From NCBI GenBank assembly GCA_012295275.1, contig CM022670.1, forward strand, positions 27,032,001 to 27,096,000: a stretch of DNA of 64,000 nucleotides, read 5' to 3'. The position numbers and the translations under genes were made by a program. Shown here one piece after another: positions 12,293-63,556 of this stretch. Source of the DNA: Chrysomallon squamiferum (Eukaryota > Animalia > Mollusca). Within the stretch, counting starts at the first letter, position 1. Each line of letters begins with the position of its first letter. The notes beneath the pieces were generated by a model that ran no database searches, was not told the DNA's origin, and saw nothing but the letters and a program-made list of their open reading frames with translations.

Positions 12293-12328
<36 letters not shown>

Positions 12329-15853: not shown

Positions 15854-15884
<31 letters not shown>

Positions 15885-27567: not shown

Positions 27568-28252
27568 AATAAATAAATTGAATTTATATTTTATTATAGT
27601 GTAACAGTATTATTTGGTTCGGAAAATAGCTTATTCAGTGTTTTCCAATATCATTAGTTCATAATTATTAGATTGAAAAATAGCTTTCCGAGTGAAATTA
27701 TTAAATCAAAAGAAAAATAACTATTTCTGACATAAATAATTTAGCTCCTCAGCAACAACAACGCAATCTTAATAGTATATTATGTTCCATTTAATGTTAT
27801 TTTTTGTTTGTTTTTTCATTATTGTTGTTTTTGTTTTCCTTTTTTTTTTAATTTTTAATTTTTATTTATTTATTTATTTTTTTTTTTTTTTTTTTTTTTT
27901 AAGGAAATAAGAAAATAAATAAATAAACAGTACGTGTTTCTCACTATGCATCTGCCAAAACAATACTTGTCATTTGTAACCCGTAGAACTAAAATTAGAA
28001 AAATACGAAAACGAGGCTGTCACAACATGCCTTCGCGGGAACAAAAAGGATTTTCCATCAAAAACTAGGTCGTTGAATAATTATGAAGCTAAAAACGGCG
28101 ATTATGTTTGTATCTTGGTAAACTTAAATATAAAAGTTATGTCAATTAGTTAATAATAATTAGCTTGTCATCTCGATGTAGTTTGTAAATTATGTTGTTT
28201 TAGAAAATGCACGCAGAAAGAAACAGCCCAAGTTAAATCAGGCAAAAATGGC
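27011..28252. promoter_or_regulatory. Divergent (head-to-head) promoter region between the uncharacterised gene and MAP3K1
   Basis: Minus-strand donor ccg|gtgagg at 27011; CpG-richer patches at ~27000-27350 and ~27930-28260; X-box-like GTTATCATGCTAAC 27045-27058; YY1-type AAAATGGCG overlapping the MAP3K1 ATG; plus-strand composition switches from A-rich to T-rich here. Confidence 0.55.
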
Positions 28253-31200
28253 GACCGCCGCTAGTTCTTTACAAATACAACCAAGAGAAACATCTAATAC
28301 CAATTCGGCCGGTTCGACCTGTGCCAGTCACTGCTGTGCTGACAGGGAAGATGGAGATTTCCAAGGTCCTCACAAATGGAGAGAAAGATTAAAACCAGTT
28401 ACAGTCAGACCTCGAATACTGAATGATGATGAAAATAATTTAAATAGCAAAACTGAAGAAGAAAACTCGACAGATCAACGTGAAAAGAATGAAGCAGACG
28501 ATTTTGACAGTTGTTCTTTTAATGGGTATCAATTATTTAAAATTGTTTAACTTAGTAACAAAGATAAAGAGCATGTAAATTGATATATAAATTGCATCCC
28601 CTTATAAAATGACACACAATACTTTGAATACATTTATTTTTATATTTTTTGGTGTACAGCTGAAATATAGATACTGAGATAGGACTGCTAAAGCTAAACT
28701 AACACTTATGGCTGTATACTTCACATATTAACTTGGAGATCATTAACTGAAAGTTTAGCATTGTTTTCTTAGCTAATTGTAATACTAATAACAAAGTCTG
28801 ACAGGTAAAGAATACTATACAGTGTAAACACCAGAATACATTTTTTTTTTTTTTTTTTTTAAATCATTATTATGTATTGTTGAGTTGATTGTGCATTGGT
28901 TAGCATTTTTTTTTCTTCAGTTCAAGATTTTTTCAGAAAATGATTTTACTTTGCTTGAATTAAACTACTAAAACGTTTTTGATGCACCATTTATAAGTCA
29001 TAATTTTCTTGTTTGCAAATATTGTTTTTAAAATAAGGAATTATTTATGAAATTATGATTGTTTGCAAATAGATTTAATATTTTTAACAAATCCTGGATT
29101 TTTAACACACTGAACTTTTAACCACACACTATGTACTCATTTTATTGTGTATGTGTGTCTACAGAAATAAATATTTTTGTATGTATGTATGTATATCAGA
29201 TATTTTCTGTTTCACAGTGATGACATGCCAGCAGGAGACTGTCAAACTACAAAGTGTGAAAAATCAGATGATGGAAGAAAGAAACTCTCCAGAATAATGC
29301 CAGCATGGAAGCAGGATTTACTGGAGAAGAGGAAAACTGTCCCAGTGGTAATGTTTTACAGATAAAAATAAGTTTGAAGCTGATTACCTAAACAATGAAT
29401 ATATATGTTTTTGTTAGAAAAATAAATTTTGTTCAGGATCAGTTACAGTTCAGTTAACACAATATTTAGTGTACTTAACCATATTTGAAAAAATAACAAT
29501 GTATTCTAAAAATTTTTCTTTATGACTGTTAAATATTTTAATTCATTGCTTTTTATGTTTAAGGCTCCACGGAATTCAAAAGGGTCTTCTGCTGCAGGTT
29601 CTCCATCACAGGTATGTATTTAATTCAGTAGTAGTTAATGAGAAAATATCTGACATACATACATACATACACATACTAAGTACTATTAATTTAATACAAA
29701 TGCAGATATTTTCTATGATAGAATAATGACATGTAAATACAAATCAGAAATAATAGTTTATTTTGGGTCGTATATATTTGTAATTTTTTAAATTGTTGAC
29801 TCAGGTCATAGAAATAAAAAAAATTATCTTTTAAAAAATTATTATTCTTTTAAAATTTAGATTCCATTAAGTATATCAAGTGCTCTAAGGCGTCGCCATA
29901 CCAACCCAGGGGCTGAATCTCCTTTCAAACAGCAAGTTGTCAACCAGCCAATACCAACTGGAATACCTCGAAAACGCATATCACCATCAAATTCAGTGTG
30001 TTTATTAGACTTTTATGAGAAAATGAAATTGAGTTTGTTTATCTCATGCAGTAATAAATTTACTCGAGTAGTATCAGTTCCACAATTACAGAATTTTTTT
30101 TTTTATTATTTATTTTTAAGTTAGTTTCTCAAAAAAAGATTTAAAAAATGCACATGCACACACTCATATACACACAGACAAATATAGTCATTTTTAGACA
30201 AGTTGGGAAAATACAAACTTATTAAAAAAAAACATTTTCTCTTTTCAAAACTCTAGAAAAGCAAAACTGAAATTACATTTCATGATAAAAATGGCTAGTT
30301 ATTTGTGCAAAATAATTATAAAATATTTTTTGTATCCTCAATTTTTTTTTTTTTTTCCAGTTCCAACAGCAAACAGGAACAGTTCAAAACATACACACCA
30401 GCAGACGCAGCAATGCAGGACTTGGACAGAATGACGACAGTGATTTGACAAAGAAACGCATTGAACGAGTGCAGAGAGCTCGTCTTTACCTATTACAGCA
30501 ACTAGGTCCACACTCTTTTCTCATTGGCGGTGACTCACCTGATCACAAGTTCAAAGTTATGATTGGTCCACAGGTAACAGAACAAAATTCTTGAAAACTT
30601 TTATTGGTGTTAGTTTCACTATATATAGCAGCTAGTGATTAAGTCAGTTGTTTGTTACATTTCTTCCTTAATTTCTACATTATCTTATAAACAATGAGTT
30701 TTATATATAAAACCTTGTGATTACTATGGAAAAAATTGAGAGTAATTAAACCAAACCTGGCTAATTATGAGAATATTCTAAAATAATTTATTAACATTGA
30801 TCTTAGAGTTATCAGTATTAAAAGCTATATTATTGAATCTTTTGTCTTAATATATAGAATTTGAATTATTACATATACAGTGTACAAGCATGTACAGATT
30901 TATTTTAAGACCAAAATTAAGCATTTTAGGTATTACTTGATAAGTCGAGTAATTCCAAACCCAAACCTGACTAAAGCTTAACTGAAATGGATATTAGCCT
31001 AAATGTATCATAAATAGTATCTCTTTAATGTAATAGGTCTAACATGGAGACCTATTGATATTTAGTCTTGTTGGTAGATATTAATGATAATATTATTTCA
31101 CCAAATTCTTTACAATTACACAAGTGAGTTTTGTTTAAAATTATATTTTAGTGCATTTGAATCTTTTCCTAGATCATTGCAAGACGCTTAAGGCATAACG

Positions 31201-34200
31201 CCCGTACTGACGGTTTTCTCGCTTTAAAATGTATTTTTATGTCATTAAACGAAGAATATCATGTTTTACATTCATATTTGGTTTTGTTATTTAATTTTTC
31301 AAAATTTTTGATAATAAAATTATATTTTTGAAAAGCTAAAGACCCTAATTTTAGATGCCCCGTTAGTCAAAATATCTTAACAACAGTAAAAAGCAACCTA
31401 TGTATAAAGTCGACCCCCAAAATATTACCTTAATATAGTCTCCCAAAAATTCGTATACACTGAATAAAATAATAATCTTTCTATATCTTAACACTAACTA
31501 CCTGAATAAACACACATGCACACGTATAGAGACACACACACACGTACACACGGAGAGAGATAGAAACGTATAAATATATTGATTAGATAATTATTTTTTT
31601 AATCTAAAACATTTACTTATTTTTGTTGCAGACGTGCACTTGTGGCCGGTTTCCTTTCTGTGTTCACATTCTGTTTGTCATGTTACGAGTGTTTCAGGTC
31701 AGCGAATCTGACCCCAGACTGTGGAACAAAACATTAAAGAATTATGAGGTTTGTACAGTGTTTAGACAGAGATATGTCAAACTGCACTGTCTGCTGTACA
31801 GTTATTATGCACTATGGTAACACCCATTCGAGAGATGTTTCATATTTCATATTATGTATTTTCATATTTCATATAAATATATTAATATATTGTAGATGTG
31901 TACAAATTATCACTGAGAGTTGTGTATGTATTTATATCATCTTTGACATGGTTAATTAAGAAAAATTCTGTGTATTTCTGGAATAATAATGGATGGACTT
32001 TTAAGATCAATAGTCCACTAATTTCAGTTTTTGAACATCTTTGTTGTAGTTCAGTATTTATGGTTTTTGTTTACATTTATGAATTTCACATTGAGTGTTG
32101 TACAAGATTTCCATATTTTCAGGTGGAAAGTCTTTTTCGAATCTACCATGATAAAAGGACTTCACGAATTCACAGTCGAAAACAACAGAAATCAGTGAAA
32201 AGTAAACCAGTTGTAGAAGAAAATCAGATGAGTGATTCCACAGAAAACATCAGTCTTCCATCAGAGAGTGACACAGGGTAAAATATTCAGTTACTTTTGT
32301 TTGTTTTTTCAAATACAAGAAGTAAAAATATTTAATGCAAAAACTCTTAAAGTTAAAAATTATTTTCTTATTTGAATGATAAATGTTTGTGTTTTTATAT
32401 GGAGAGAGAGAGAGCATTCACTAAAAAAAAGTAATAAAAGAAAAAATAAAATAAAATTAGTTTGAGCAAAATAATTTCAATAAATAATTTGATATTTAAT
32501 TTTTGTTAAATATTTATTATAATTATTAATTAATTAATTAATTAAAAAACAGGAGTACAAGGGAAGAAGATGATACATGTCCAATTTGTCTGCTTGAAAT
32601 GCTGGAAGGAGAGAGTCTGATAAAATGTGAAAATGGCTGTCAGAATCGACTTCATCATCACTGCATTGCCATCTGTGAGTTGAGTTGTGAGAGAATCACA
32701 GTTTCTGTGTTTTTAAAAATTATTGTGTATACCAGTGACACTGAACTGAGAGTCACTTGGCATGCTGGGAAAGGATGTATTCTGTGATTTGAAATATGGG
32801 AGGATTTGGGAAAGACTGGTATTGGAGGAATATAACCAGGGACATTGAGAACCACAATTTAAACCTGTTGAAATATCATTTCAGAACAGAGTATCGAATT
32901 ATTATGTAGATATTGCATTAAAACAGTCACTTGACTTGTACATAATGTAATGATCTTACTGTTTGAAAAGTTTCTATGGCTAGTTGGTAGAATGTTAGCA
33001 TAATCATCTATCAACCTGGACAAACACTTTGAACTACCTTCTTTGAACTGCCTGTTCTCAAAGATAACATTATTAAAAACAATGTCCTTACTTAATTTCT
33101 TTGTTTGAAAGTAATCTATATGTTAAAGGTGTTTTACAGATATTTGTTTAGGATACATATCAAATTTTATTTTTTAAGTTAGATTTATATTTGACAAATT
33201 TAGGAAGTTGAATTTTGGATATTGTTTTTTTCCAGGGTTTGAGGAATGTCGCAGACAGAATGATCCACTCAACTGCCCACTGTGTCGCACACGCTGGAAA
33301 ACAACAACTGTGGAAATCAAAAGGTCAGTCTGTGAGAATTTATAATAATCTAAATTTATACAAAGAAGCTCTTTTTGGAACCTTAGTTTTGAAAAGCTGC
33401 GAAGTGTTTGTTTTAAGATATATTATGAAAAAGAAATCTGGATATTAATCTCTTCAGTATCTTAGGAGTCTCAACATATTGAATTATGACAGAAGTTTTT
33501 ATATAAGTAATAAGATAGCTCCTAAGATATATACTGTTTAAACCACAATTCCAATTTTTTACCATTAGACTGTAATACCTTAGTGAAAAGGTTATATTAA
33601 GCAATATATAAGAAGAAGAATTAAAGAGTGAAAATGAAAAAGGTACAATTTATATTAATGTGCACATGTATCTGTATATTAGTTAACAGCTATTTATTTT
33701 GAAACACAACTTTATCAGGACAGAGGTGCTAAAAGTTTTAAAAGATTTGATCACTATTTTGCATAAAATAAAAATAGAAGGAATAAATTTAGGATAAAGA
33801 TAGTCATTCTAATTTACAGTTGTCAAAATGATAATGAAGAAACTCCAGAGGCTCCACCCAATACTCGGGCACCTTCCCCGCAGAATGTGCCTGAAGGACG
33901 ACTGCCACATGCAGAGTCGATCCCACAAGAAAACCAAGCCACTGCAGAACCTTGGATAGAGGTAAATAGGGTCTTTCATAACAGCGGAAAGTAACTTTGT
34001 TAAAGTGTAAATAGTGACTGTTTTCTACTTTGAAATATTAGACAAAATAATTTTGAGATCTAATACAAAATTAAAAGACGGTGTGCTCTTAAACCACTGA
34101 TAGTCGTCAGAACAGAATTTGTGTTTAGAAAACCATCTGTACACATGATTAATGACTTTTTCTGTATTGTTAGGTTTTGGGTGAAGATCTGGTCTCGTGT

Positions 34201-37200
34201 TTGTTTTCACGTAACTGGTCTATCCGGGAGATGGGTGTGAAACATCTGAGTAGAGAAGTGGTTGGCACGCTGCTGCGAGGTATGGGTGAAGGTCGGTCAG
34301 GTGTCATTGTTTCGCCAACTCGCCAGGCTGCCACCAGGCAAATGCTTGACACCTGCTCCAACATCATCGCATTCATGTGTGCTGATCCTGTGTACCGAGT
34401 GTTTGTAGCCAGTCTCGTAAGTTATCATTCAGTGCATTCTCAACCCACACCTAGCAGTAACAGCTGAGTTTCTGTGGTACTGAAATGTAACTGAGCAATT
34501 ATTCATTCATGCTTTATCCAAATTCATAAAATCTTATTATTGTTTCAATTTCTGTAACACTATAAAATGTAACATTATTAAGTTGATACTTACCTTGTTG
34601 GAAGGATGTAAATTATTTTAAAAAAATAAAATAAAGAAAGTAATAATAAATACATAAATAAATTTACTAGCATATTTCTGAACAAAAAATCATTTATTTT
34701 GATTGTGCTCTGTCAGTATGGTATAGATTGTTCTCATTTATAATCAACTTAGTTAACAAAACCCCCAAAATTGCTGTTGTTAATCTACCCAAATATTCAG
34801 GAGATGAACAACAAACAATTCTGTTAATTTGCTCCATAATGCAAACTTTTTTTTGTTCACCATATTTTAATAACTTTTATGTGCTGTTGTTATGGCCAGT
34901 TTGTTTCTAGTGTCAAAGAATAGAAAATTGCTGCTGATGTTTAATGTGTTATTCATTGATAACAAGTCTTGTCTGTTACTAACTTTTCTTCAACTTTGGA
35001 TTTGTAAAATACCCTGTTGTAATTTAAACACAATACTTAAATTTTGTAAATGTTGTAATTCAACATCATCATATACTGTCAAATCTTAAAACCATTCACA
35101 AATGATCAGTAGGTTTGACACTGAATTCTGTAGCTTCACTTTGTGTTACAGAGGGCGCTGCGACAGATGCTGGCGTACACACCATGTCGAGATGTACAGC
35201 AGCAGGAGAGACTGCAAAAAAGAATCAAGCCAGTTGTCGATGCAATCATACTCAAGTGTACAGATGGAAATAAGTAAGTAATGTAGCTTTTGTTCAGTCT
35301 GCTTCATAAATGTGTTTAATTTCATTATGCAGACATCAGTTATTAATAAAAGCCATTATTGATGATAATAATAACAAAATGTTTGTTATTTTAAATTTAA
35401 TTCATTTTTCTTCTCTTTTTTTTCTTTCTTTTTTCCATTATATGTTTATTTCATACAGCTGAGTTTTTACTTTTTAATCAAGTTGCTTACGTGGAAAGAT
35501 GTTCATTCCATTATGTTATTTATTATTCAGTTTTTCTGTTGAAATGTTGCTTTGCATACTTAAATTTCCACAAAAAATGTATTTAAATCTCAAAACTCAT
35601 TTACTGTTTTATAATAACATATTTATTATTTAAAAAAATCTTACACTAAATATGTGTCATGTGTGACTGCAGGAGAACCAGTCAGTTGTCACTTTCTACT
35701 CTTGTGGAACTTGCAAAAGGCCAAGATGGAGAACTTGCTGTTGGCAAAGAAATTGTCAATCCAGGTAATTTGAATAATTTCTAAACAGAACTTTTTCAGT
35801 TCATATTGGCAGGTTTATTTCACTGAAAGAATAAAAGAACATTTCTTAAATTCTGCATGCATTTTTTTATTGTGCACACACAGAGATCTACAAAAGACTT
35901 TTTAATTTCAACAATCTCTGTTTCATTTTTCCTTTCTTGTCTGTGTTCTTGTTTTTGAATGTCTTTTGTTATTTCCTAGAAATTAAAATTTGATTAAAGT
36001 TACTGTTATTTTTTTAATTATTGTATTTTTTTTTATCATTTTGCAAAGGTGAAATAAAAATATAAATTTTTGTAATGTTTATTATCTGGCATAAAAGATA
36101 CAAGTTTTAATTTGCTTACAGGGTCAGCTGGTCTGGATGGACTCTCGTACGTGCTCAAGTGTGTGACAGAACAGTACAGTGTAGAGCAGGTTCAGTGGCA
36201 GTGGCTTCTGGGTAGACTTTACGTTATAGACAGGTTCCTAGAGGAATTTCCTTCGGATTTTCTACCATCAGAGAACGAGCACCCAAGTGCAGCATCAGCA
36301 GGGAACGATGTTCCCGATGCAGCAGGGGCTGCAGCATCGGGTGGAGATGACCTCACAGAAACACCTCACAATTACCAGCATCTGTTGTCTGTAGCCCAGT
36401 TCTCAGTGAAAGCGGTTTGCAATGCTCACACACGAATTGCTCGAATGGCCAGAAGAGTATTTCTCCTCACAGCAAAGCTTGGTGCTCATCTGGGTTGTAT
36501 TGTTAAAGAGATGGAAGACTTGTTGTCAACAATAGACTCAGCCTCGGTGATTTCGGTGAAGAGAAAGCTGGCAAGGATTGTCAGTGATTTTCACATCTCA
36601 GAAAAAATTGTTCAAGAGTTGCAGCATGGCACTGGAAAATCTCGCCATCATGTGCACAGAGTTTCCTCCCCTTTTGACACCCCTAAAGACTCACCAGTGT
36701 CAACACCTCGATGCACTTCACCTGCCACTGTGTGTTCAGATGAGCCCAGTGACGTTGGTGGTTCTCAGGCAGGGAAAGGCATTCCATGTTGCCCTCCTAA
36801 CACCCCAATCCACAGAAAAAGGAAGAAACACAAGCGGTCTATTCCACGTAGAATTTCCAAAGAAACAAATTCTCCCACACCTCCCGTCACTCCAGAAAAG
36901 AAAGAAAACAGCAGCAAGGACGATGAATGCTGTGCTGAAGATAACCCAATAGCAGACAAATCTGGTTTGTCACTTCCGTTCATTCCCATCAACTATGAAA
37001 GTAATGAATGTCCAGAAATAACACCAGAAATGTTGAATGAGGACACGTCAGGCGAACCTGCGGGTGTTGAGGCTTGCAAAGCGCAGGAGTGTGAAGACCG
37101 GTTCTTGTTTGTCAGTCAGGAAGATCACAACACATCAGAACCTTTGTCAGCCACAGCCTGCGGGTGTTCAGACCAGCCACAGTATGACAACATGTCAGTG

Positions 37201-38945
37201 CAATCAGGAACAGCAGCAGCTCCAAATACTCCAGAACATGTTCCGTGTTTCCACACTGCTGACCAGGAAACCATGAGCAGTGATGACCTGCTTGACCCAA
37301 ACAGTGTCCACTCGCCACTGCAGGCAAGTGAGCAGCAAGTTTCCTTTAAGTCAGAAGTTACACAGTCACCAAAGGTTTCACCAAGTCACACAGCTGATCA
37401 GGGTGAGTTTGCTTTCTAGTAACATTACTTAGAAATGGATAAAACAATATGTTATTTAAGAAAATAGAAATGTGGATTTTAATAAATATATTGTTATTTT
37501 GACTTTAGTATTAAGTTTGAATTTTCACTATTCTTACTTCATAAAGTACAAGAACAGTTAATCAGTGCTGAAATGTAATATTTGTTTAAAATATTTTTGT
37601 TATGTGATAGTTATTTAAGAAGATTTTGGCTTTACCATTATGTTTGTATGGTGTATATCAGAAGCATTTAACAGAATATAAATTTTAATAACTTTTGATT
37701 TTATTTATACTAAATATATATTGTCTGGATGTAGAGATACAGCATATCTTTTTGATACAGTTAAAGGTTATTATTAAAAGAGTTGAATACTGAGATAATG
37801 TAAGAAATTGTATGTCTTTTAATACAGATAGTGACAAAGTTACAACAAAAAAATACATCTGTTTCTCAAACAGTAAAATAGATATCTTTTATTATTTTTT
37901 CTTCACTGGTGTCAATACATATTTTGCTGTACTAAATAAAATTAATTTGACACATTTTGATTTGATATTGGTCTGTTATTAATAATAATTTATTTAACAA
38001 TTTTATTGCTGGATATATTTTTGGACAAAAATTGCTTTTCAATTCATGTTTTTAACATTACGAAATATTCATATTTAAACATATTACTGGATTTTAATAT
38101 ATTTTTATATCCTTTTAGAGAGATTAGATTTTATACTGTTTATCTTTCAATGCTTCTTAAATGTTTTAATTTGTCAAATAAATTTATTAAGTTATTATTG
38201 TAATTTATGTATCAAACTATAAAAATGATCCTGATTTTCTGCCATTGTTTTTAAATAATCTAATTTTAAGAAAAATAAAAAGAAAACAGCCATTTCAGTC
38301 TGTTGATGCTATTTTCATTGTTTTGTTTCCATTGACCTAGGAAACAGGAAGAAAATGTTAATTTGATTCAGTGTGTGGTCAGTCAAATACAAACTGCTGT
38401 TAGTTAAAGCAACCTGTATTCAGTATATTGTCATAGTTAGAAGAAGAGATTTTGGAATTATTTTGAGTTATTATCACAGTGTAAATAACTTTATATTTCA
38501 GCTGCAATGCAGGAATCACGAGAATGTCACTGTAAGGAAGAGGTAGAAAAAGAAGAAGCTGTTGCCATGGCAAAAGCAATGGAGGTATCCTACGTGCAGG
38601 ATCCTTGTCCTGTAGTCCCAGGACTCACACCAACCAGCAAGGAGGAGGTCATCACCATTCGCATACAGCCAGATGTGAGCTTTCTGTATATTTTAAAATA
38701 ATATTTCATTATTTGATTCTCTTTCAACCAAATAAAAGAGAGAAGAAAACCAAACAGAATTTATAGAAATAATAATGGTCAGTTATTATTACAGTGAAAA
38801 TGTTGTATGGGCACTGAAAGAAAATTTTAGTTGAATAATGTCTTGTTAAATGCATATTTCAAAACCACTTCTTTTGATTTTTTTATAATTTTTACTATTG
38901 GCATGTTTTGTTTTTATTTTATTTATTTTTTTGAATATTTGTTTG

Positions 38946-38984
<39 letters not shown>

Positions 38985-41900
38985 TTTTTTTTTTTTGCTC
39001 TGTGTTGAAAGATGATATTGAAAATCAATAACATCAAGAAGTGATTTGCAACACAAGAATAACTTAATTTATTAGTTCAAACTGACAAAGACATCATTAA
39101 AAACAGTGGTATACTTTTAATAGTTTATTTTATTAGTATTCTTTATGTCTCCTGAAAGACATGATATTAAAAATTGTGTATGCTGTTAGGATATTTGTTC
39201 TACTGGTATTTTTTTAACCTTTGTAAAGATGTAAAATTTAAAACACTCTGTTTTACTGCTATCGTTATAAATTTTTTTTTTTTTTTTAAATTACCCAGGA
39301 AGACTGCATGAATGGTGTTGCTGTAGACCATCCATCAATATACTATGAAGGAATCCACTGGTTGAAAGGTCCTCTGCTTGGAACTGGAGCCTATAGCACT
39401 TGTTACCAGGCCAGAGATGTGGCCACAGGAGTTCTCATGGCTGTTAAACAGGTGAGCTTGGTTTCAGTGATCTGTCGTGGGGTCAGGAGAATCCCCAGAA
39501 GTTATTACACATGAAACTGATTAGTATGGTTAACATTAAGAAATTGATATTATGATCCACTGCAATGTAATAAAACTGATATCATATTATTGTAAATTTC
39601 TTAGTTTATTATATTTATAGGTTAAAATTTTTAAAATGCTATATATTTTATGGAAAAAAAAAATTGATAAATAAATGGAATGAAAGAAAGTTATAATGAC
39701 AGGAATAATTATTAAAGTTGTACTCTTGTTACATATGAAAATTATCTTTTAATTTGCTTGCATTGTTTCAGTAATGTGTATACTAATCAAATAAAATAAA
39801 AATCATATTCTTATGATGATGTGATTTCTTTCACCTTCTGAACCCTTGCTTAATAAAATTAACTAACCAGTTCCTTGTCCAAATTTACCAGAAAAACCAA
39901 TATTCCATATTAATTGTATGAAAATTTTATATCAAACAAGCAAAAATATCACCAAGAGTGGTTTTATTTTCAAAATCATTGTATATACAAACAACACAAG
40001 AGACAAATGTCATGACATCATTGGTATATTCCTGCAGATTTCCTTTTGTCGTAACTCGCCAGCTGAGCAGGACAGTGTGATAGAGGCTATAAAAGAAGAA
40101 GTTCAAATGATGTCAAGACTAAATCACCCGAACATCGTCCGTATTTTTGGAGCAACGAAACAGGGCTGCCATTTTAATATGTTTGTTGAGTGGATGCCTG
40201 GTTAGTGACATCTAAATTCATAATGTTTTAGAAAAACATTTTTTTTTTTTTTTTTTTTTGGTCATTTGGCCAGAATCATACGAAGAAGGGGATATATATA
40301 CTCAGTGTGTTAATGTGTGAGTGTGGGTGTATGTGTGCATGTGTGCAAATCTGTTCCTTGTGAATGGGGTAACTGATGTAATTTGTCTGACATGACAGTT
40401 TTTACAGTCAGAGCTGCCTTTAAAAATATTCTGTATCATTTTTGTTCAGAATTATTTTATATCAACCTGATTTTGTTAAATGGTACACTTACATATATTT
40501 TAATGTCAGTTTTTGTGAACCAGATTATATTATATTAATTTGATTATATCATTAGTTAAATATAATCTTTAAGTTTAATACTGTAAACAAATGAGTTAGA
40601 AAACAAATCTGAGTTTTAAAAGGTCCTTCCTGGCTGATTCCATAAGCTGTGCTTTGTTTAGTTTATGCCTATTTATGGACCATGTTTTGTTGAATATAGA
40701 GTGAATAGATGGTTGTGTAAGACTATAGGCTACAGCCATGACTATTTGTAATTTAATGCAGTAAAGCATAAAAAATGCTGTTTGATTTTCACTAACAGAC
40801 CAAAGTTAGATATTAAAAAACTAATTTTTAAATGCATATCAAAACTAAATTTTATTAGGTGTAAAATTTAGACATTTATATTATTTAGTCAATTGTTTTT
40901 GTACTTGGTAACACTATAAAAGGTTATAAAATGTTTAAATTGATATTTTAATTATAAAACAATGAATATCTTACTAGTGTAACTGTTTTATTTTTAAGGT
41001 GGTTCTTTGACATATTTACTTGGTCGCTATGGAGCTTTCTCAGACTATGTTATCACCAACTACACAAGACAAATACTCAGGGGACTTGCTTATCTCCATG
41101 ACAACCATTTGTTACATAGAGATCTCAAAGGTAGGTATTGCAGAAGAATTTTAATTATTTATTTATTTATATATATTTTTTTTTAAATTTTTTATATTTT
41201 TAAATTAGCTGTGAATTAATGCTAGATATTAATTATTATTTATTTAGTTTTTATAAATAAGAAGTATTCCTTATTTATTTATGGTAAGTTTTGGAGATGT
41301 TTTTCACCTGTGAGCATAAACAAATCTTGGAAAATTGTTGTTTCAAGATGTATTGTGTGGAAAAATAAATTTAATTTATGTTTCATCAAAAAAAAAAACA
41401 GTCAAATTAATATTTTTTAAAATACATTTTGGAAGATTTAGTACTGTCAGTTAGGATTTTACTGTTGTGATATTTGTCTACAAGACCAGGACTGAACAAT
41501 TGAGACTGAATTATTTTTAACTTTTCTGCAAAATTGTCCACCAGAAATACCCAACAGAGTTATGGAAATTCAAATTTATACATCTGTATGAACCATGTAA
41601 TAACTATTAACTAACAAGTATTTATCATTTATTTATTTAAAATAAATACAGATGTTGCATTTTGTTTTATTTACCTTTTGTTTTTTTTTTTATGCACTTA
41701 TGGGCATTGCATTATTTATTTACCTAGGTTTGGGTTTTTTAACACCTGTGTTTTAATGTATTTACCTCTTTCTCTAGGTGCTAACCTTCTAGTGGACAGT
41801 TCAGGACAACGTTTACGAATTTGTGACTTTGGGGCTGCTGCGAGGTTAGCATCGCATGCCACAGGGGCTGGCGAGTTTCAGGGACAGCTGCTGGGTACCA

Positions 41901-43235
41901 TTGCTTTCATGGCTCCAGAGGTAAGCTTCAGATCAGTTGTAATATAGAAATACCTTAAGTTACCTTGTTGCTTGCACAGAAATTTATAACAGATTAAAAT
42001 GACCAACAAATGATCAAGATTATCAAGAAAGATATAAAACTGTAACAGTTTTATTAGGTTTTTAGAAAAGTGATCTGTTAATTATAGAAAATTAATTTAA
42101 TAAAAGTAACAATAGTATTTTATTTCAAAATATTTTTGACAATTTGTTTCTGTATTTGGTTTGTTTTTTGATATTAAGTTTTATCTAAGTGTATTTAGTA
42201 TGTTTATTGGTTGATTTTTGTGAGTAGTAAACATTTTAGCTAAAATTATACACTGTTGCAAATATATTATATTTTATTTTATTATTTTATTATTATTATT
42301 TTATTGTTGTTGAAATGAATTATCTAAGCTAGATATTGTGTTTTCACTGCAAATTTTGTAAACCGTATTTAAAAATTCTAGGTGTTAAGGGGAGAGAACT
42401 ACGGTCGTGCGTGTGATGTGTGGAGTGTAGGTTGCTGTATGATTGAGATGAAGACAACTAAACCACCTTGGAATGCTCAGTACCTCTCCAACCACCTGGC
42501 GCTTATTTTCAAGGTAGTCAATTTGTCACAAGTCTATTTACACATTTCTTTATAGTAGTTATTTATTATTTTGTAGTATTATTTGCTTTTTAAACTACTA
42601 TATTTTTATTTATTTATTTTCTTTTATTATTATTTTTGCTTGAAAGTTTTATAGATATAATAACTGAGAAATAAAGTTGGTTGTTATTGTTTGTCCCAAT
42701 TTTTGTTTGTTTTGTTTTGTTTTGTTCTGTCATATTTTGAGTCCAAATTAATAAACAAAATGAAACCCAAAAGTCGTCTAAAGTCTGTCAGTGATAGATA
42801 AATAATGAACTGTTCAAAAACTAGGCCATAACAGGAAACCACAAACCATAGGCCATTTTTTTTTTATAAAACCATGCAGTTCACCCTGTCTGGGACAGGT
42901 AAATTGCATAGTTGCCACACCAGGGAAGATAATGTCTGCTCTTTCACCAGCCAAAAATTACACTCCTGTTTGTAGCCAACTGTCAATGATTTAAATTTGT
43001 GTGCAGATAACATTTTTATCTCTCGCAATTTTCTAAAGCTTTGTCGTCTTAAAGTTATTCTCATTTTATCATTTTTCAGATTGCCTCGTCAGTGGAGCCT
43101 CCACCGATTCCAGACAACCTGTCTCCCGCCATTAAAGACCTGATGCTGCGATGTCTCGAGCATCAGTCCGAGTTTCGCCCGACAGCAAAAGAACTTCTTA
43201 TGCATCCCCTCTTTACTCAGTATCAAAACATATAG
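28248..43235 (+). CDS. MAP3K1: Mitogen-activated protein kinase kinase kinase 1 (MEKK1), 21 coding exons, ~1405 aa
   Basis: Exons 28248-28525, 29218-29347, 29564-29611, 29861-29995, 30361-30573, 31632-31748, 32123-32277, 32553-32674, 33236-33323, 33820-33961, 34174-34416, 35152-35273, 35673-35764, 36122-37402, 38502-38674, 39299-39451, 40038-40200, 40999-41130, 41778-41920, 42382-42513, 43080-43235; all GT-AG, phases consistent (4218 nt). Diagnostic motifs: [23 protein letters not shown]; SWIM CTC..CVH; [32 protein letters not shown]; TOG-like [14 protein letters not shown]; UIM-like [15 protein letters not shown]; kinase [38 protein letters not shown]. Confidence 0.97.
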
Positions 43236-53425: not shown

Positions 53426-53618
53426 TTAGTGCACTTTGCTGAAATAGGTCTTGCTGCCTTTTGGGTCTGGCTTCATGGTGTCCGCTCCAGGCTTCCAGCC
53501 TGCAGGGCACACTGAAAATACAGCGGGGGATAAAAATGAAACAAACATTTTTACTCTGTGCATTTAATTATGAAGGTTTGAATGTTTGATGATTGAAAGG
53601 AAAAGCAATGTAAATAAA

Positions 53619-53661
<43 letters not shown>

Positions 53662-54177
53662 AGAAAAAAAAAAAAAAAACAGAAAAAAATGAAAAACTTA
53701 AATGAATGGAACAATTGTTAATTTGATAAAGTAAACCTGCTGTCATAATTAGATCAGCAGAAACATAACTTCTATATACGTGTGTCGAGTTTGATGATTG
53801 AAAGGAGAAGTGAAGTAAATAAATATAAAAAAAATAAATATAGACAGAAAACTAGAAAAACTGAATAAAATAGAGAAAAAAAAAAAAAATGAGAAAAAAA
53901 GAAAAATACAGAAAAAAAGAAAAACTTAAATGAATGGAACAATTGTTAATTTGATAAAGAAAACCGGCTGTCATAATCAGATCAGCAGAAACATAACTTC
54001 TATATACATGTGTCGAGTAAACAGCAGATGTAGAATCAATGATGAAAAGGAAAACGATCCAATGGATCCTTTAAGAAGGGTTCATCAAACACCCTGTTGA
54101 TCCTGAGGTAAGCTCTTTGTCCTAGAACTAATTTGTTTTATTTATCATCACCATAATTCCATTTTGTTGTGACTAAA

Positions 54178-54242
<65 letters not shown>

Positions 54243-55288
54243 AAAAAAAAAGAAAAAAGAAGCCTCAGTATGAAACCAGTATGATAGCAGAGTAATTATT
54301 TATAGTTTACATTTATGCATTTCAAATCACATGCCCATCAGTTCACTCATTCACTCATCTGGTCACTCTACAGCTCACCATCTCCAAACTTATAAACATA
54401 CATACAGAACTCCCACAAATGACATGCACAAAAATACCTTCTCCATGTTTGTCAGTGAACTGGAAAGCCTGAACAAGACGAATAGTCTCGTCTACTGACC
54501 GACCCACAGGCAGATCGTTGATTGTTATCTGTCGCAGAATTCCCTTTTCATCAATGATAAACAGTCCTCTGAAAAATAACACAACTTACATAAAATCTCA
54601 AACAGGTCAAATTTATATATTTTGTAAACAGTTTAAAATGAAATTGATAATCTTCTAAACTTTTAAAATAGTGGGGGAAAAAAAAAAATAAATAATAGCA
54701 GTTGGAATGAAAATTTTGTACATAATATGCTACCTTAATAGACACACACACACGCATACCCATGCATACATACATGCATACATACATACATACATACATA
54801 CATACATACATACATACATACATACATACACCTATATATCTACATATACAATACTGATGTATACAAAACTTTATTAACTAAATAATTGGTTAATCCATAT
54901 TAAGAATGTTTAAATAGCAAATTTAAAAAGGAATGTAAAAGCAAAAAATAAAAATCTAAATAATGTGAAGTATATGCATAAATAATTTGAAACTACCTTT
55001 GGAAAAAATCTGTCAAAATAATAATTCAAATCAGTTGGCAAAAGTATAATTGTTACATAAACACAAAAGCAGTTAGGTAAAAATATAAATCTTACCTAAA
55101 AGCAATGCCCTCATCTTCTTTAAAACAACCATACATTTTGGTTATTTCCATTGTTTTGTCAGCGACCAGGGGGATCTTCATCTGACCCAGCCCACCCTGT
55201 TTTCTTGGTGTATTCACCCTGAAATCATTTATATTAATGTAAACAACACAACTGAGTTAATATTAAAATTACAGTTAAAATGAAAAGA

Positions 55289-55319
<31 letters not shown>

Positions 55320-57413
55320 ACAGGAAATTATTTTATCCTTATGTTCTGTAAAATATAAGTTTAAAATTTTCAATTAAAATGCAAATGTCACCTGACATTT
55401 TTTCTCCTATGTGTAATCTAACACTGATCAAACAAATGCATCTTCAAATATTAAAATGTAAAGCAGGCAGATTTTAGTTATTTTCATTTAATGTATTAAA
55501 TAAAAGTAGCTGTTTTAAATTGGCATTCAAATTAAACATTTAAATATATTAATATAAATGAGCAGTTTGTGTAGCAGCTGTGGACATTTCTTTGACAACA
55601 ATAAAAATAATTAATCTGCAGTTTCTCCTGTTTTTCATTCCCTCTTCATTGCATATCAAAATTACAGTTTTACAGAATTGATGAAAAAAAGGTAGGTTTT
55701 GACACCAAAATGTTAGGAAATCACTGATTTACAGAGACAACACAGAATTTAAGCAGATAGTTATTTTCAAATATTTAAATATATTAAAATATGAACACTT
55801 AAACAGAGCAACAAATTATCAGGGGCAAAACTGCTTTCTCACCATGCTAAATGGGAGAAGACACTGTCTGTGGAACAGGCCAAAACTTCACAGTTAATGC
55901 TTCGGAACTCTTCAATACGGTCACTGAATGAGATGATTTCAGTGGGGCATACAAATGTGCTGGAAAAAATATAGCAAAATAATAAAATAAACATTTAACT
56001 TGTTAACTGAACATATAAAACACTAATGTAAGCATATATGTACTCATATTACACAAACAAATGCCTCTAATAAAACGAGTACTTTCACTTGATTGTTAAA
56101 TTTGTTTATAGCTGCTAATGATGTCTGAAAATAAAATAACAACCTTTTAGGGATACATTATTTTTATCTCGTTTGTTTAAAAAACATTCTAAATGCCACC
56201 CTTGCCAAATCATTGTTTTACATTTTTTCCCATTAAATCTTTTAATGGTACCATTTATTTATTAAATTCCATTAAATATTTTAAGGCACCATTTCATTTT
56301 TTAGATGTCTTCTTTGGTGATAAATAAATCTACCTCTCAAATGGAGGCTCATATTTAATTTAATTTTTCAGGAATCATTTAAAAAAATATTTATTCCCAT
56401 CATAATCATTTTCTTAAGTGATCGTTAATGTAATTTGAGAGCAATTTGTTTGTTTATGTATGTATAAGATTTCTCTGCTTATTAGTTGTACAACTGAAAA
56501 CTTTACTTCAAGAAATTATCAATCATTTTATTTTTAATTTCATTTTAATTAAAAAATCCTTTTGTTTGCAGACAGATTTTCTTTGTTTCTTTACATTTTC
56601 AATTAGGTATTTTCGGATTTATTAAAACACAAAATCCATTCAGTCTCATAGACGTGAATTTATCAAAGTGCTGAAAGATGAAACATTTTAAGTAAATACA
56701 CAAATATTTTATATACAGATATACTTAAGGGCCCTTTTCACATCAACAGTCACACATGTATAAATAGATAATGGGAGATCCCCATAAATTTCTTTTTATA
56801 ATTTTTTTCTTTTTTAAATTTCTCAAATAACTTATTCTAACAGGTCGATTTATTTATCACCCAAGAAGATATTAATCAAAGTAGCCACACAGATATAAAA
56901 CAAATCTTAGTTTTAAAAAAGTAATAAAATATTTAATGCAAATGACTAAGCACATTTTGAGACAAAATTTACATAAACAGTTACAGGAAAGCCCATATTA
57001 CAGTTTTTATCATGAGTGTTGCATAATACAGTTTTCAGAAACCTGCTAGAACATTCCACACTCCAATCATGAAACAATTACATGGATACACAAATATGGT
57101 GGTATGTGCCAGAGCTCATTGCCTGAGTGTGACACATCATTTCTAGGTCAGTTTGCAGAACTATCCTCTATGCAAAGAATGTGTGAATTAAACATTTCCT
57201 TTCATGATAGCAGACACTAAACAAATTTTTATTTATTGACTTGATGGTGAGATACAAGGAAAGAAAATAAGGGCACAGCCATTATTACTGATTTTATTTT
57301 TATAATAAAATGATAAATGCACCCATTAAAAGTTTTGGTTTCAAAGACTTAGCATCATTCTTCAAATAGATATTTTATTTAAAAAATTTATATCCATCAA
57401 TAAATTTATAAAT

Positions 57414-57467: not shown

Positions 57468-59253
57468 TCACACTCGCACTCACTCACACTCACTCACACA
57501 CACACACACACACAAACATACAGTGATACACACACATATATATCAAGATACAAACTACATCTGACAATTTTTCAAAATAAATATTTAAGTTTCTAAATTC
57601 TTTTTTCCAAACTTTGAGTTACACAAATAAATTTGTACTCAGAACTTCTCACAACACAAAATTAAGTCAAAAATACAAATGTATACATGTTTTTTCTTTT
57701 TTTTTTTCACAAGCATCCTCTCAAAAACAACACCAATCAAATGTATACAAAAACAGGTTTGTTTTTTTTGCACATCATAATTACTGCCAACAACAAAATA
57801 TTAATTAACCACAACCTCAATAACCGAACAGTTAACCTTTTGCCTCCACTATTAGTTCCACTAGGTTCTAATGCCAAAGAAATGAAAAATAAAAAAACTT
57901 TCTCATGCAGTCAGCTGGTAGTTATCTATAAAATGAACAAGACATCCTAGTTGAAAAACCGGATCTCTTAATGTCAGAGCTTTTTTAAACAGAAAACCAC
58001 AAGCTTGTGTGACAAACATGAATCATCGAGTTACTAAGTGCATTACTGCTTTACAAAAATAAACCACACAAACATCTTAATTTGTTTTGTTGTTTTTTTC
58101 ACATTTTCCCCAAAAAATCTTAAGAAAATATCCTACAAAGAATTTTCTTTTTCTTTTAAAAATAATGATAATAAAATACACAACTGTAATTAGAAATAAC
58201 TCATAAACAAACTAGGTTTCTGAATTAATCCATTTTTAAATGTATGTTGTATAGTAAAACACAACAATAAATAAATAAATAAACATTCATATATTCATAC
58301 ATATATAAATATACAAAAACTAAATCAAATATTAAGAATAATAATTAACCATTTTAGAAACAATATTCAAATGAGCAAAATATTTTAAGGATTAATAGTT
58401 AAATAGCTTAAGCACTATAAATTACAGTTAATTCCCAAAATTAGTGAATGCTTTATTTTTTATTGCATTAAACTATACATAAATAAATGAAATAAAAGTC
58501 ACAATCTAAATGTAACATTAATGTTCTATCTTTAGCATGACATATCTTTACTAGCTGTGGAAAATGATTCTAACTGAGCTATTCAGCGATACAGAATCTG
58601 CAAGAACATTTATTTTCCACATGCATTGCATGAGTTGGGAAGCGACCACAGATAATAATCCACATTAGGATAACCATTATTTTGTTTTGAAAAATATATA
58701 CTAGATCCTTATCTCCTTCAGTAAGATCAGTTTTTAGTTTCTCATGTTATAAGAAACTTTTATCTTCAGTTCCATTCAACCATGAATGAATTACAGTTTT
58801 TAGCTACTTCAGAACTCACCTGAATGCCCTATTTTATACCATACAGAAAACACTTGTGATTAAAGAATACAGTGTCAAACCACAAAAGAAAAAAAATCAC
58901 GTTTCTTCTATTTTTAGACAGTTTCAGACTTTCAGTCTTCAAATATATACAGAAATTATCCCATTAGAAGTATTAAAATTAAAATAAAATATTTTATAAA
59001 TCTAATGGTAGAAGAAAAATGCAATATGTATCTTGTGTTTTAGAAAAATTTCAGATTAAAGCTTCCAAAGAATCCACACAACTAGTGTTAAAAGTAAAAA
59101 CAAAACAAATTAACTTACAAATCTAATGGGTAAAAGAAAAACTACAACATATTTTCCTCTGTAATCTGACAGCTTCACATCCTTGAAATCTCCATCGATA
59201 ACAGCTTGTGCCTTGAAGTCAGGGGCTGGTTTAGTGATCTGCAGTTTCGACAT
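53426..59253 (-). CDS. PRDX1: Typical 2-Cys peroxiredoxin (Prx1/AhpC subfamily, PRDX1/2-like), 5 coding exons, 196 aa if the 1-nt frameshift in the first coding exon is corrected
   Basis: Exons 59253-59119, 55959-55843, 55218-55096, 54568-54438, 53511-53426. [19 protein letters not shown]; peroxidatic TFVCPTEI; SHLAW; GGLG; [24 protein letters not shown]; resolving [11 protein letters not shown]; C-terminal YF. One extra T in the run at 59137-59141 breaks the frame as given. Confidence 0.93.
53584..54017. repeat. Tandem duplication (~205-230 bp x2) in the last peroxiredoxin intron
   Basis: gtttgatgattgaaagg..(A-rich)..cttaaatgaatggaacaattgttaatttgataaag..gatcagcagaaacataacttctatatac.tgtgtcgag occurs twice. 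Confidence 0.92.
54764..54830. repeat. (CATA)n microsatellite
   Basis: Direct reading. Confidence 0.95.
57414..57513. repeat. (CA)n/(CACT)n compound microsatellite
   Basis: Direct reading. Confidence 0.95.
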
Positions 59254-59991
59254 GTTTGTTTGCTAAATGAAAATAAAACTTAAAATAATAAAAATGAATA
59301 AGTTAACAAAACAAAAAACAGTTTTTTTATGTAACAAGTTAATCAGTAATTCTTCTTTTCTTCTTTTTGACAAGACTGAACAAACAATAATAATAATAAT
59401 AAAAGAAATATATTTATAAAAAAGGTATAACAACTAAACCATACTGCAGCAGTCGAATCTTCAGGTGGGAATCGAACACATATAACAGTAACATGCTTTT
59501 CAAACATTCCTTCCACAAATAAAGATTATTCCCAGTGGGGTTAAAAGCTTTATGTTCCTTTTGAAATTTTTAATACCAGTTATGAACTGTGGGTGTGTTT
59601 CTATGTAAGTAGGTCTGCGTGTGAAATGCTTGACGCCTCTGAACAATAATGTTTATTAGTGCAGAGACAGCCGAGGTTATGTGGTTAGACTAGTTTCAGA
59701 GATACTCTCTGTATGAGATTATAACTATTAAACAGCAAAACTGTTTTAAGTATCTTTTTAAGTGCTAAACATAACAAAGAATAATTATTTTAAAAAAAAC
59801 AAAAACAAAAAAAACAATTTTAATCTTTTAAGAATAATGAAATAAAACAACAATGTTAGAACATAAAAATTAATTTAAAAAGAAAAGGAAAATAAAGGTA
59901 GAAACAAAAGATAAACAATTTCCTTTTAATTACCTTTTTTACTGAGACCATTCCAAGTTTAAAAAGATCTGTGAAATTGTATAATAGACTA

Positions 59992-60040
<49 letters not shown>

Positions 60041-61009: not shown

Positions 61010-61159
61010 CTGAACTGGTGACACCAACTCTGAAGATGTTTGAGAAAAAGCAGAATCACTGCTGAATGATAATTCTTTAGGGACGCTGTTTTTCTGTACT
61101 GCTGTGGATGCCTGTGATGTGCACGTCTTACTCAGAGATTCGAGATAGGCACGGTACAT
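61010..61159 (-). CDS. Putative alternative first coding exon of the peroxiredoxin (50 codons)
   Basis: ATG at 61159 opens MYRAYLESLSKTCTSQASTAVQKNSVPKELSFSSDSAFSQTSSELVSPVQ and ends CAG|gtatga in phase 0. The acceptor exon at 59262 begins CAA ACA AAC ATG, so the join is in frame. GC-richer than its flanks. Confidence 0.65.
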
Positions 61160-61239
61160 TATAAATACATTACGTTGTTATATATACACTCTCACTAATA
61201 ACCACACAGGTCTGTGAGCACACCTCTACTGCTGATGTT

Positions 61240-61253
61240 GTTGCTATGGAAAC
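61240..61253. promoter_or_regulatory. RFX X-box (internal peroxiredoxin promoter)
   Basis: GTTGCTATGGAAAC, a near-consensus X-box ~80 bp upstream of the ATG at 61159. Confidence 0.7.
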
Positions 61254-63286
61254 AATTTTATTTCCAAGCTAATTAAGGAATTTTTCAAACAGTGTGTGCA
61301 TCTATCTTCTATGGAAATGTAATCAATGTAGCTCAGGTACTTAATTGGTAAATAGCAATCACAAATGATATGGACCTAGTATCAATAGATACTGGTATTG
61401 CTCACCACAATCTGTCTTAGTTAATAACTAATGTATGTAGATAGTTTCTCAATCTTGTCTTTAAACATTTATCTTGTGACCATTCTGAAACAAGTGTATC
61501 ATCTGTTTCTATCATCTGATAATTTGTCAACTATTATAATGATTTAAAATCAAACTAAGTACCAAATAAACAAGCCTGATAAAAAATAACTTATTGACAA
61601 GACATAATTATCAAACATATTGGTAAATGATACTAACAGTGTCAACAAGAGAAATAAATTGAACTGCTGCAAAAAGGGAAATCTGTAGTCTCATTTTATT
61701 AGGTTAAACACACAGTTTTGGTGCATTTGTTAGCTATTCTGTTACTTATGGCAACTAATTTTACTAACAATAAACAACCTTAATATTACAATAAACAATT
61801 TGATGAAAAAATTAGAAAAAAAAATCACAAATTATGTTAAAATGTAGTACATTTGTGACAACACATAAAACAATTGTTTATCAAGATTTAAAGCAAAAAA
61901 TATAATAAAAGTTTTTTTGTATTCCATTTAATAAATGATGTCATTTATTATCTCAATATTAACATAGTGTGTATTCATGTGCTACCATGTGTTATGTATG
62001 TATACAGATAAACACAACTGAAAGTAATTAGAGAAGTGTTTGAATATAATCCCGTTTTATTCATATGTGTATTCCCTTTTGTTATACTTGTCTTCCTTTA
62101 TGCCTAAAGATAAACTGGATATGCTTTGATTAACAAGTACAATGTATTCACTAGTCACAATACAAATCTGATGAAATCAAGATTTGTATAACAGGATTTC
62201 ATTAGATGAATGGGACAATGCAATTTCTCACTTGTTATTTAATCAAATAAAATAACATTTAAAATGAATTGAACTGAACGTTATGCCTGCATGTAATTTT
62301 CATCTGCTATATTCATTCTTAATGAAGCCACTGATTACCGATTGTTTTAGACCCCAGTATAAAATAAAATAAAAGAATTATACTTTAAAAATGTGCATAA
62401 AGAATGAACTCTTCACCCTCTTTCTTTGATAGTAAACTGTTATATAATATGAATTCTAATAATTTTTTATTATTATTATTATAAATACAGACTGAAATAT
62501 GAATTATTTGTTTATCATTTATACATGGTCATTAGTACTTCAAAAAGTAACTATTTTTTAAACATTTTCTTTTATACTTGTCAAATTGTTAATTACAGAT
62601 AGACAGGATTCCACTAATTTACTTTTTATAATTTACTGTTCAAGATTTTTAATAACTTTCACAAATGAGTAGCATGCAAGCATTTGGTATCATTGGTTTT
62701 AAGATCAATCAAAATTTCTACCCAGTGTCCTGAAACATGGATTATCAAAAAACTTGGTAATCTTTTCCCGAATTTGGAAATATGTACATAAAATAAAACC
62801 AGTAGTTACTGATTAATATAGCCCAGAATGGCTGTATTTCACAATCATTTACTCAAGTCATATTTTTAAAATCCAATGATGTATGTTATTTATTTGGCAC
62901 AAAACTGGAATCATCGTTAAAGATATATTTTTATTATTATTTATTTATCTTTTTGTAACTGTAATAATTGCAGTAAAATATTATTTCTCCCATCTGACAA
63001 TGCATAAAATAAAATGACCATTTCTTATTAACTTAAACAATAAAAATTAATATATTAATAATATTATTGTATAATAAAATAATGTGAAAAAATGTATATA
63101 AAAATGTTTAGAAAACGAACGGATTAGATACGCTTTTAATGATTAATATTATTCGAAGAATATATATTCGTAAATGTACATTTCTTACTTTTTAACTTTT
63201 GTGCTTTAAATATTTGATGACACAGACTGGATTACGTAAGTTAGATTGAAACGAAATTACAACACCATCGAACTTTGAACATCATT

Positions 63287-63556
63287 TGACATTGCCGCAT
63301 AGCGTTGCAGCATGAATGAGAAAATCATAAAACGGCGAATAAAAACAACAACAATATAAAGAAAACTTTTACCTATGATCTTTTTTAAAATTTATGTTTC
63401 TTTAACATTTTATAAATCAGAATAAAGACATTACCTTTACCTGGAATTGCAAAATCCTAGAAGAAAAAATTAGACCTCGCACACTACCGAGTGCAAAAAC
63501 AACCACGTGATTTGATGTCTGACCTGAACTTCCGGGCTGTTGCACATTGACTGTGC
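63287..63556 (-). promoter_or_regulatory. Distal peroxiredoxin promoter and non-coding first exon (donor at 63440)
   Basis: ttccag|gtaaag donor at 63441/63440; CACGTG 63504-63509; ETS-type ACTTCCGG 63528-63535; ARE cores TGACnnnGC at 63548-63556 (TGACTGTGC) and 63287-63295 (TGACATTGC); CpG-richer island. Confidence 0.6.

Follow-up and report, generated by a model that had tools for sequence, protein, structure and literature searches.

An alternative first exon in a Prx1/2-type peroxiredoxin gene of Chrysomallon squamiferum encodes an N-terminal tip shared with other molluscs

The 64,000-nt stretch of Chrysomallon squamiferum DNA analysed here (the window) carries on its minus strand a peroxiredoxin gene that has, besides an ordinary non-coding first exon, an alternative first exon (exon 1B) that is transcribed and spliced at its predicted donor. 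Exon 1B includes a 50-codon frame that opens with a nine-residue tip, MYRAYLESL, of a kind found at the start of Prx1/2 proteins of other snails and clams. The explanation that we favour, with a probability of about 0.5 for the chain as a whole, is that RFX would switch on exon 1B, that the tip would dock the enzyme, and that inclusion of a mini-exon would uncouple the tip from it.

The coding exons of the gene extend from 59262 to 53426. The common exon 2 (59119..59262), placed by contigs and by translation, starts with the codons for QTN followed by the main ATG at 59253. Exon 3 (55843..55959), joined to exon 2 in RNA runs X1, X2 and X4 by loose ends of contigs, includes the peroxidatic Cys in TFVCP. 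Exon 4 (55096..55218), with the GGLG motif, and exon 5 (54438..54568) were placed by translation and comparison, and the coding part of exon 6 (53426..53511) includes the resolving Cys (VCP), the YF motif and the stop codon. Typical 2-Cys peroxiredoxins have a peroxidatic P-x3-T-x2-C motif, a resolving VCP, GGLG and YF. In the window YPLD (exon 2, in a shifted frame), TFVCP, GGLG, VCP and TYF are present, and exons 3 to 6 share 137 of 150 residues with the Gigantopelta aegis orthologue (P0001), in which both PF00578 (AhpC-TSA) and PF10417 (C-terminal Prx domain) score above cut-off. The window enzyme is a typical 2-Cys peroxiredoxin of the Prx1/AhpC class.

In a midpoint-rooted tree of 40 rows, the window core is sister to Gigantopelta aegis (100/97) and lies in a 31-row clade with four vertebrate Prx1/2 sequences (96/88). 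Three rows with a signal peptide and four with a presequence-type start, as these groups were labelled by reading the N-termini, fall outside that clade. As judged by this tree, the window enzyme belongs to the Prx1/2 subgroup, not to Prx3 or Prx4. One extra base in a T run at 59142/59143 breaks the frame of exon 2 in the window and would make the gene look broken; its absence from all four covering runs makes an assembly error the most likely cause. With the base removed, the ordinary protein is 196 residues long. Two Gigantopelta models, X1 and X3 (P0121 and P0122), have a 13-residue insert with two Cys just before the peroxidatic TFVCP, and none of eight open 39-nt AG..GT candidates in intron 2 of the window was a counterpart of it. 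Intron 5 carries at 53611-54017 (-) a direct duplication of ~190-230 nt, read by eye, the copies starting ...tactcgacacatgtatatagaag and ...aactcgacacacgtatatagaag.

Elsewhere in the window, exons at 28182-41947 (+) with SWIM-like, RING and kinase pieces, matched weakly by Pfam, belong to a gene that is presumably MEKK1/MAP3K1-like. Frames of 164 and 173 residues at 2198-2692 (-) and 5812-6333 (-), neither of which has a Pfam family, are alike (FEKMK.M..., MAERLAKLE.TKKQL) and, by that likeness, form a tandem pair of one unnamed gene. A multi-exon gene at 11053-16538 (-) is represented by several frames that are likely coding, and the four pieces of it that were scanned gave no Pfam match.

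Contigs from five runs were examined, namely four RNA runs of one study (X1 to X4) and a run of unspecified kind, X5, that behaves as DNA. The first exon used differs by run. X3 and X4 show the ordinary non-coding first exon 1A, which has no ATG, lies at 63435..63504 (-) as far as the contigs reach, and in both runs continues into exon 2 from a donor at 63435, a position that corrects the 63441 of the earlier note. Neither run covers exon 1B, and X1 covers exon 1B with no cover of exon 1A. Run X2 (share 0.14) is uninformative, having no contig on 60830-63600 and one that begins inside exon 2. Intronic contigs of low depth (3-5) from X1, X3 and X4, which probably represent pre-mRNA or DNA, were set aside. 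An X3 contig also matches 23 nt at 63444-63466 and runs on into sequence outside the window; this match was taken as chance. At the other end of the gene, the X1 contig (535 + 372 nt by length) stops at the end of exon 5 (54438), a possible branch point in X1, and the contigs of X2, X3 and X4 are long enough to reach exon 6.

The frame in exon 1B runs without a stop for 150 nt, from an ATG at 61159 to a phase-0 donor, CAG/GTATGA, at 61010 on the minus strand (61010..61159), and encodes the conserved tip followed by a Ser/Thr-rich linker. A 907-nt contig of RNA run X1, at a depth of 55.8, covers 61346-61010 with its letters 1-337 and splices at 61010. The frame and donor described earlier from the sequence are thus as predicted, and the exon itself (61010..61346) is at least 337 nt long, not 150 nt. 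The contig begins at 61346, where no AG precedes it and no loose end is seen; contigs of this kind cannot show transcription starts. Two short upstream frames lie in exon 1B, one of 10 codons from an ATG at 61301 and one of 3 codons from an ATG at 61170, and the TAA of the latter overlaps the tip ATG as TAATG (61159-61170).

A chance origin of the 50-codon frame was rejected on its match to an orthologue, its base composition, a simulation and the recurrence of the tip. Its GC content is 0.44 versus 0.28 in the flanking intron, and of 2000 simulated introns 50 contained an ATG-to-donor frame of at least 50 codons. Aligned with residues 1-56 of the Gigantopelta protein over 56 columns, which include two gaps of 3 residues, the frame is 57% identical (E 7.8e-9 in the window). 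The frame is also intact in a region where the nearby intron differs between the window and run X5 by eight indels in less than 2 kb. Within the frame, the X1 contig and the window differ in two codons, both differences changing a residue of the linker (S25N and L30I).

From exon 1B the X1 contig does not pass directly to exon 2 but follows the route 61010->59988 and 59934->59262, and then enters exon 3. It thereby includes a previously missed 55-nt mini-exon (59934..59988, -), seen in X1 as a joint at 59262/59934, which skips 671 nt and ends CT..AC, and as a loose end into exon 1B. A run of 46 T (59993..60038, -) is the pyrimidine tract of its acceptor. The mini-exon puts a TAA (59961-59959) into the 50-codon frame, which then stops after 59 codons, nine past exon 1B. 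It also carries an ATG at 59951, with G at both -3 and +4, from which the enzyme is read in frame with a 9-residue extension, MVSVKKQTN. A second AG inside the mini-exon (a 36-nt form, read by eye) likewise leads to an in-frame TAA, and no in-frame inclusion was found. Neither a matching 9-residue start (0 of 3 Gigantopelta and 0 of 7 Haliotis cluster members) nor a stop-bearing mini-exon occurs in the models of these two genera.

A direct 61010->59262 join, which the earlier note had proposed, would be in frame with exon 2, and the Gigantopelta protein is annotated in that form. The joint itself was seen in contigs of none of the five runs, one of which covers exon 1B, and the stop in the mini-exon interrupts the proposed reading in the contig that does. 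Hence the 53-residue extension is not encoded by the sole transcript seen, and the part of the claim that holds is an ancient, conserved frame. Because contigs drop rarer splice forms, the missing joint does not amount to absence. Since the frame is intact and in phase despite the eight indels in the nearby intron, C. squamiferum probably also makes the direct splice, which would give a 249-residue protein like the annotated proteins of its relatives; the single exon-1B contig and its two residue-changing linker differences count against this.

The conserved tip (61133..61159, -) was compared across relatives. Gigantopelta XP_041357093.1 starts MYRAYL, and its extension runs straight into the common exon; three Haliotis species have extensions of 48-49 residues with the same start, also joined directly to it. 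A start of the form M[YF][RKQ]x[YF] was found at or near the N-terminus of 30 among 374 proteins collected, bacterial and vertebrate ones included. Six of the 30 are without an organism name and the other 24 come from 20 species of gastropods (Gigantopelta, Haliotis, Pomacea, Littorina, Babylonia and Biomphalaria) and bivalves (Mytilus, Magallana, Crassostrea, Pinctada, Sinanodonta, Potamilus and Mercenaria). In the named species the Prx1/2 protein begins M-Y-[RKQ]-x-[YF], mostly with a hydrophobic residue 6 and Leu9, and the linker is unconserved. With one row taken per lineage, Y2, R/K3 and Y/F5 are each present in 12 of 12 rows and L9 in 8 of 12, and the mean pairwise identity is 0.64 for residues 2-6, 0.17 for 7-12 and 0.07 for 13-24. 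The length of the extension varies from 28 to 68 residues. These tip isoforms of relatives come from automatic annotation or transcript assembly and not from mass spectrometry of proteins.

In the tree, a single lophotrochozoan Prx1/2 clade (98/98) takes in every one of the 16 rows that bear the tip. As they occupy both the gastropod and the bivalve part of this clade, the tip, as judged by the tree, predates the split between the two groups. Snails and clams separated more than 500 million years ago. The rows examined of Lottia, Patella, a chiton, annelids, brachiopods, bryozoans, ticks and vertebrates lack the tip, which marks the limit of the sample and not absence from these groups, and no cephalopod is among the named matches listed.

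The earlier note had suggested searching relatives with the peptide. Used alone, the 50-residue peptide matched none of 23 candidates at E<=10 and none of 1.84 billion representatives at E<=0.001, and it has no Pfam family; a search of the ESM Atlas with the Sinanodonta tip gave no usable match. The orthologous extensions surfaced only through searches with the enzyme core. A metagenome scan with P0144 returned 80 loci, the best 73-76% identical to the core; the earliest match starts from residue 31, so that no match from residue 1, and no exon-1B locus, is among them.

Other N-termini, labelled here by reading the sequences, are found on the same enzyme family. Mytilus X1 (among P0267, P0213 and P0216) has a presequence-like N-terminus on a Prx1/2 protein; Capitella and two rows without an organism name (among P0255, P0249 and P0251) have starts like a bipartite NLS; and Biomphalaria, Elysia and Physella (among P0218, P0181 and P0316) have an N-terminal piece with GVTLIRVG. 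Babylonia has two Prx1/2 loci (P0159, P0228 and P0170 versus P0332, P0333 and P0340), one of which carries the MYR tip. At the second locus, as in Nucella, the tip is lost and the following helix, KL[RK][ED][YH]E, is kept, which suggests that this helix can outlast the tip.

AlphaFold, run on the Gigantopelta protein with a 34-row alignment, predicts a helix at residues 2-8 (pLDDT of the block ~61) followed by disorder at residues 11-58 (below 50). M1, Y2, Y5, L6 and L9 form one face of the predicted helix, and the first 11 residues are amphipathic, with a hydrophobic moment of 0.39-0.67 in 15 of 16 rows. The earlier description of a helical tip on a flexible linker agrees with this model and with the presence of the tip in the 20 named species. 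High identity at residues 2-6, which then falls, together with varied lengths, is the pattern typical of a short motif carried by a spacer; a short conserved N-terminal helix on a free spacer would thus resemble a docking motif. A prediction of the complex between the Gigantopelta tip (residues 1-34) and two copies of the core scored 0.00 and makes no call either way. Proteins starting Met-Tyr retain the Met and are substrates of NatC, whose class comprises Met before Tyr or before another hydrophobic or a basic residue, according to the parts of PMC11735805 covered. The tip fits this class, with Y2 in all 12 lineages, acetylation itself being predicted, and the acetyl-Met may therefore belong to the signal.

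The window was also scanned with general X-box consensus patterns. The earlier note had reported a near-consensus X-box ~80 bp upstream of the frame, and this site is present at 61240..61253, 81 nt before the ATG and within the stretch covered by the X1 contig; it is the only match in the window to GTYNCY-AT-RGNAAC, with 0.05 expected. A distal X-box-like site with a 3-nt spacer, missed earlier, lies at 61741..61755, 582 nt before the ATG, and is the only match to GTNRCC-N0-3-RGYAAC, with 0.2 expected. The union of the two patterns matches twice in 64 kb, both times less than 600 bp from the ATG, where 0.52 matches are expected (0.008 per kb). The chance of two such matches in one kb is ~3e-5, the union pattern having been written after both sites were known. 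Functional human X-boxes are mostly found no more than 500 bp from the start, in either direction, as described in the parts of PMC5838959 covered; the distances of 81 and 582 nt given here, which compare with that range of ~500 bp, are counted from the ATG and not from a mapped start.

As judged by these motifs, RFX fairly likely drives exon 1B, and from the X-boxes alone its expression in ciliated or sperm cells is likely. The motif statistics, two X-boxes with 0.52 expected in 64 kb, are what the proposal of RFX control now consists of. In one supplement of PMC7498320, Prdx1, Prdx2 and Prdx4 do not occur among the rows covered, and Prdx5 occurs at least 10 times; the two Prdx5 rows examined are peaks ~10 kb away. 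No description of a peroxiredoxin under RFX/X-box control in cilia was found in a literature search whose scope left most subscription journals outside.

In the mechanism that we propose, exon 1B would be switched on in ciliated cells or sperm by RFX acting at the two X-boxes. Direct splicing would give the 249-residue enzyme, the tips of which would hold the oligomer to a fixed partner and thus localise H2O2 removal. Inclusion of the mini-exon would separate the tip from the enzyme as an upstream frame of 59 codons, and the enzyme could then be made only by leaky scanning to the ATG at 59951 or 59253; with leaky scanning as the sole route to the enzyme, inclusion of the mini-exon would be an off-switch for the tagged form. 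We think it quite probable that the tip is a docking signal, read with a retained and probably acetylated Met and present in many copies on the peroxiredoxin ring, that serves local removal or relay of H2O2. That the docking site lies in the cilium or the sperm tail, the mitochondrial sheath included, has in our view an even chance.

The earlier note knew of no such arrangement for Prx1/2, and in this it has to be amended, as one is already in print for prdx-2 of C. elegans (PMC11620748), the nearest studied parallel. According to the parts of that paper covered, an alternative first exon changes the N-terminus of this Prx1/2 protein, the forward primer for prdx-2b translates as M-Y-R-Q-M-S-K-A-F, and PRDX-2B, which acts in the gut, alone rescues a defect linked to mitochondrial H2O2. 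The likeness to the mollusc gene extends to a Prx1/2-type gene with alternative starts, an isoform-specific exon 1 and an M-Y-R start, and PRDX-2B has a function that other isoforms lack, which the authors (PMC11620748) propose to reflect targeting by the N-terminus. PRDX-2B differs, in the parts covered, in having four added residues with no linker and no Y5, L6 or L9, and in its link to gut and mitochondrial H2O2; no X-box, cilia or mini-exon appear in those parts of PMC11620748. By analogy, the C. elegans evidence would point to mitochondria-linked H2O2 in the gut and not to cilia. Three residues match between the mollusc tip and PRDX-2B, which from general residue frequencies has a chance of ~1 in 250 per isoform and serves as a lead, not a blind test.

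Mammalian PRDX4t is a looser parallel, similar in that an alternative promoter and exon 1 give a 2-Cys peroxiredoxin a tissue-specific N-terminus (PMC7577974, in the parts covered). There the enzyme is Prx4, and an upstream alternative exon removes the signal peptide and so shifts the product from the ER to the cytosol; PRDX4t knockout males are fertile (PMC7577974, same parts). The mollusc exon instead adds a tag to an enzyme of cytosolic type. A mechanism of the PRDX4t type was rejected, since the core is Prx1/2 and exon 1A, having no ATG, provides no signal peptide. The database models XP_041357093.1 (Gigantopelta), XP_046583294.1 (Haliotis), XP_071159670.1 (Mytilus) and XP_055885824.1 (Biomphalaria), named 'isoform X1/X2/X4', have the same tip in the same position with a direct join. 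Among vertebrate sperm enzymes, GAPDHS, sperm variants of aldolase A and LDH-A, and GPX4 variants have N-terminal anchors from alternative exons. They resemble the present case as housekeeping enzymes placed by a tissue-specific N-terminal piece, a likeness of arrangement in which similarity of sequence is not expected. The arrangement is thus known in kind. For the conserved mollusc tip, mollusc Prx isoforms and the mini-exon no paper was found, nor with four tip hexapeptides as search terms, most subscription journals being outside the scope of the search.

A classical cleavable mitochondrial presequence was rejected on charge. Such presequences are net positive over their N-terminal 20-50 residues and poor in acidic ones, and six presequence-like comparators have a net charge of +4 to +8 with 1-2 acidic residues. 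The window extension has a net charge of 0 (4 acidic and 4 basic residues), and tip-bearing extensions, which contain as many as 12 acidic residues, lie between -7 and +8, all but one of the 16 rows between -7 and +4.

It is possible, though on the unlikely side, that the tip is an acetylated amphipathic helix holding Prx1/2 at a mitochondrial or other membrane surface, and not a ciliary anchor. The M-Y-R-Q that the prdx-2b primer places before the common start speaks for this, as does the finding that only prdx-2b rescues and that without it H2O2 is raised in the matrix as well as at the outer membrane (PMC11620748, in the parts covered); the amphipathic tip (moment 0.39-0.67 in 15 of 16 rows) and its Met-Tyr start of the NatC class fit as well. 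However, the charge of the extensions is unlike that of presequences (-7 to +4 in 15 of 16 rows versus +4 to +8), Mytilus has a separate presequence-like isoform (X1) beside its tip isoform (X2), the invariance of Y2 and R/K3 points to a specific partner and not to lipid, and the two X-boxes are left unexplained. A highly improbable alternative makes the tip a determinant of enzyme lifetime or oligomer state, as an N-degron, an acetylation switch or a self-pairing helix. Unacetylated starts of Met and a hydrophobic residue are read by UBR ligases, in the parts of PMC11735805 covered, but a degron needs only two residues and no spacer of 20-60 residues, and conservation of the tip reaches positions 5, 6 and 9. 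Self-pairing would suit Littorina, Babylonia and two unnamed rows, in which the helix extends with hydrophobic residues at 2, 5, 9, 12 and 16 in a heptad-like pattern, but this longer helix is absent in C. squamiferum, Gigantopelta and oysters.

The transcript itself raises a further alternative, in which exon 1B acts in C. squamiferum mainly as a translation brake. The mini-exon, enabled by the 46-T run, would have turned the extension into an upstream frame, the tagged form being lost, and the exon-1B promoter would yield little enzyme or the form extended by nine residues. The only exon-1B contig, at a depth of 55.8, does have the mini-exon structure; the ATG within the mini-exon has G at both -3 and +4; both listed differences in the frame change a residue; and the 9-residue start is matched by no Gigantopelta (0/3) or Haliotis (0/7) cluster member. 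This is one contig from one sample, however, and contigs drop rarer forms, while the frame is without a stop or shift, in phase with exon 2, and has only 3-codon gaps relative to Gigantopelta. An intact, in-phase frame of this kind speaks for the direct join having been under selection at least up to recent times, and we hold the brake to be improbable as the main role of the exon.

To return to docking by the tip, a wider reading, which is speculative and which we consider unlikely, is that the MYR start would be a Prx1/2 targeting signal inherited from the common ancestor of molluscs and nematodes. Molluscs would have kept it as the full helix on its linker under RFX control and C. elegans as four residues, animals would exchange first exons of this sort (tip, presequence-like or NLS-like) and so send one peroxiredoxin to different compartments, and in C. 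squamiferum the poison mini-exon would be the off-switch.

Prx1/2 is regarded as an enzyme spread through the cytosol, and the question arises how its removal of H2O2 and its signalling are confined to particular places in the cell. The nine-residue tag, kept in both snails and clams, offers a testable handle on the placement of Prx1/2, and the tip is a sequence-level lead to the unexplained isoform specificity of C. elegans PRDX-2B. If the RFX reading is true, the family would include a peroxiredoxin isoform dedicated to cilia or sperm, which would be relevant to the quality of sperm in farmed oysters, mussels and abalone.
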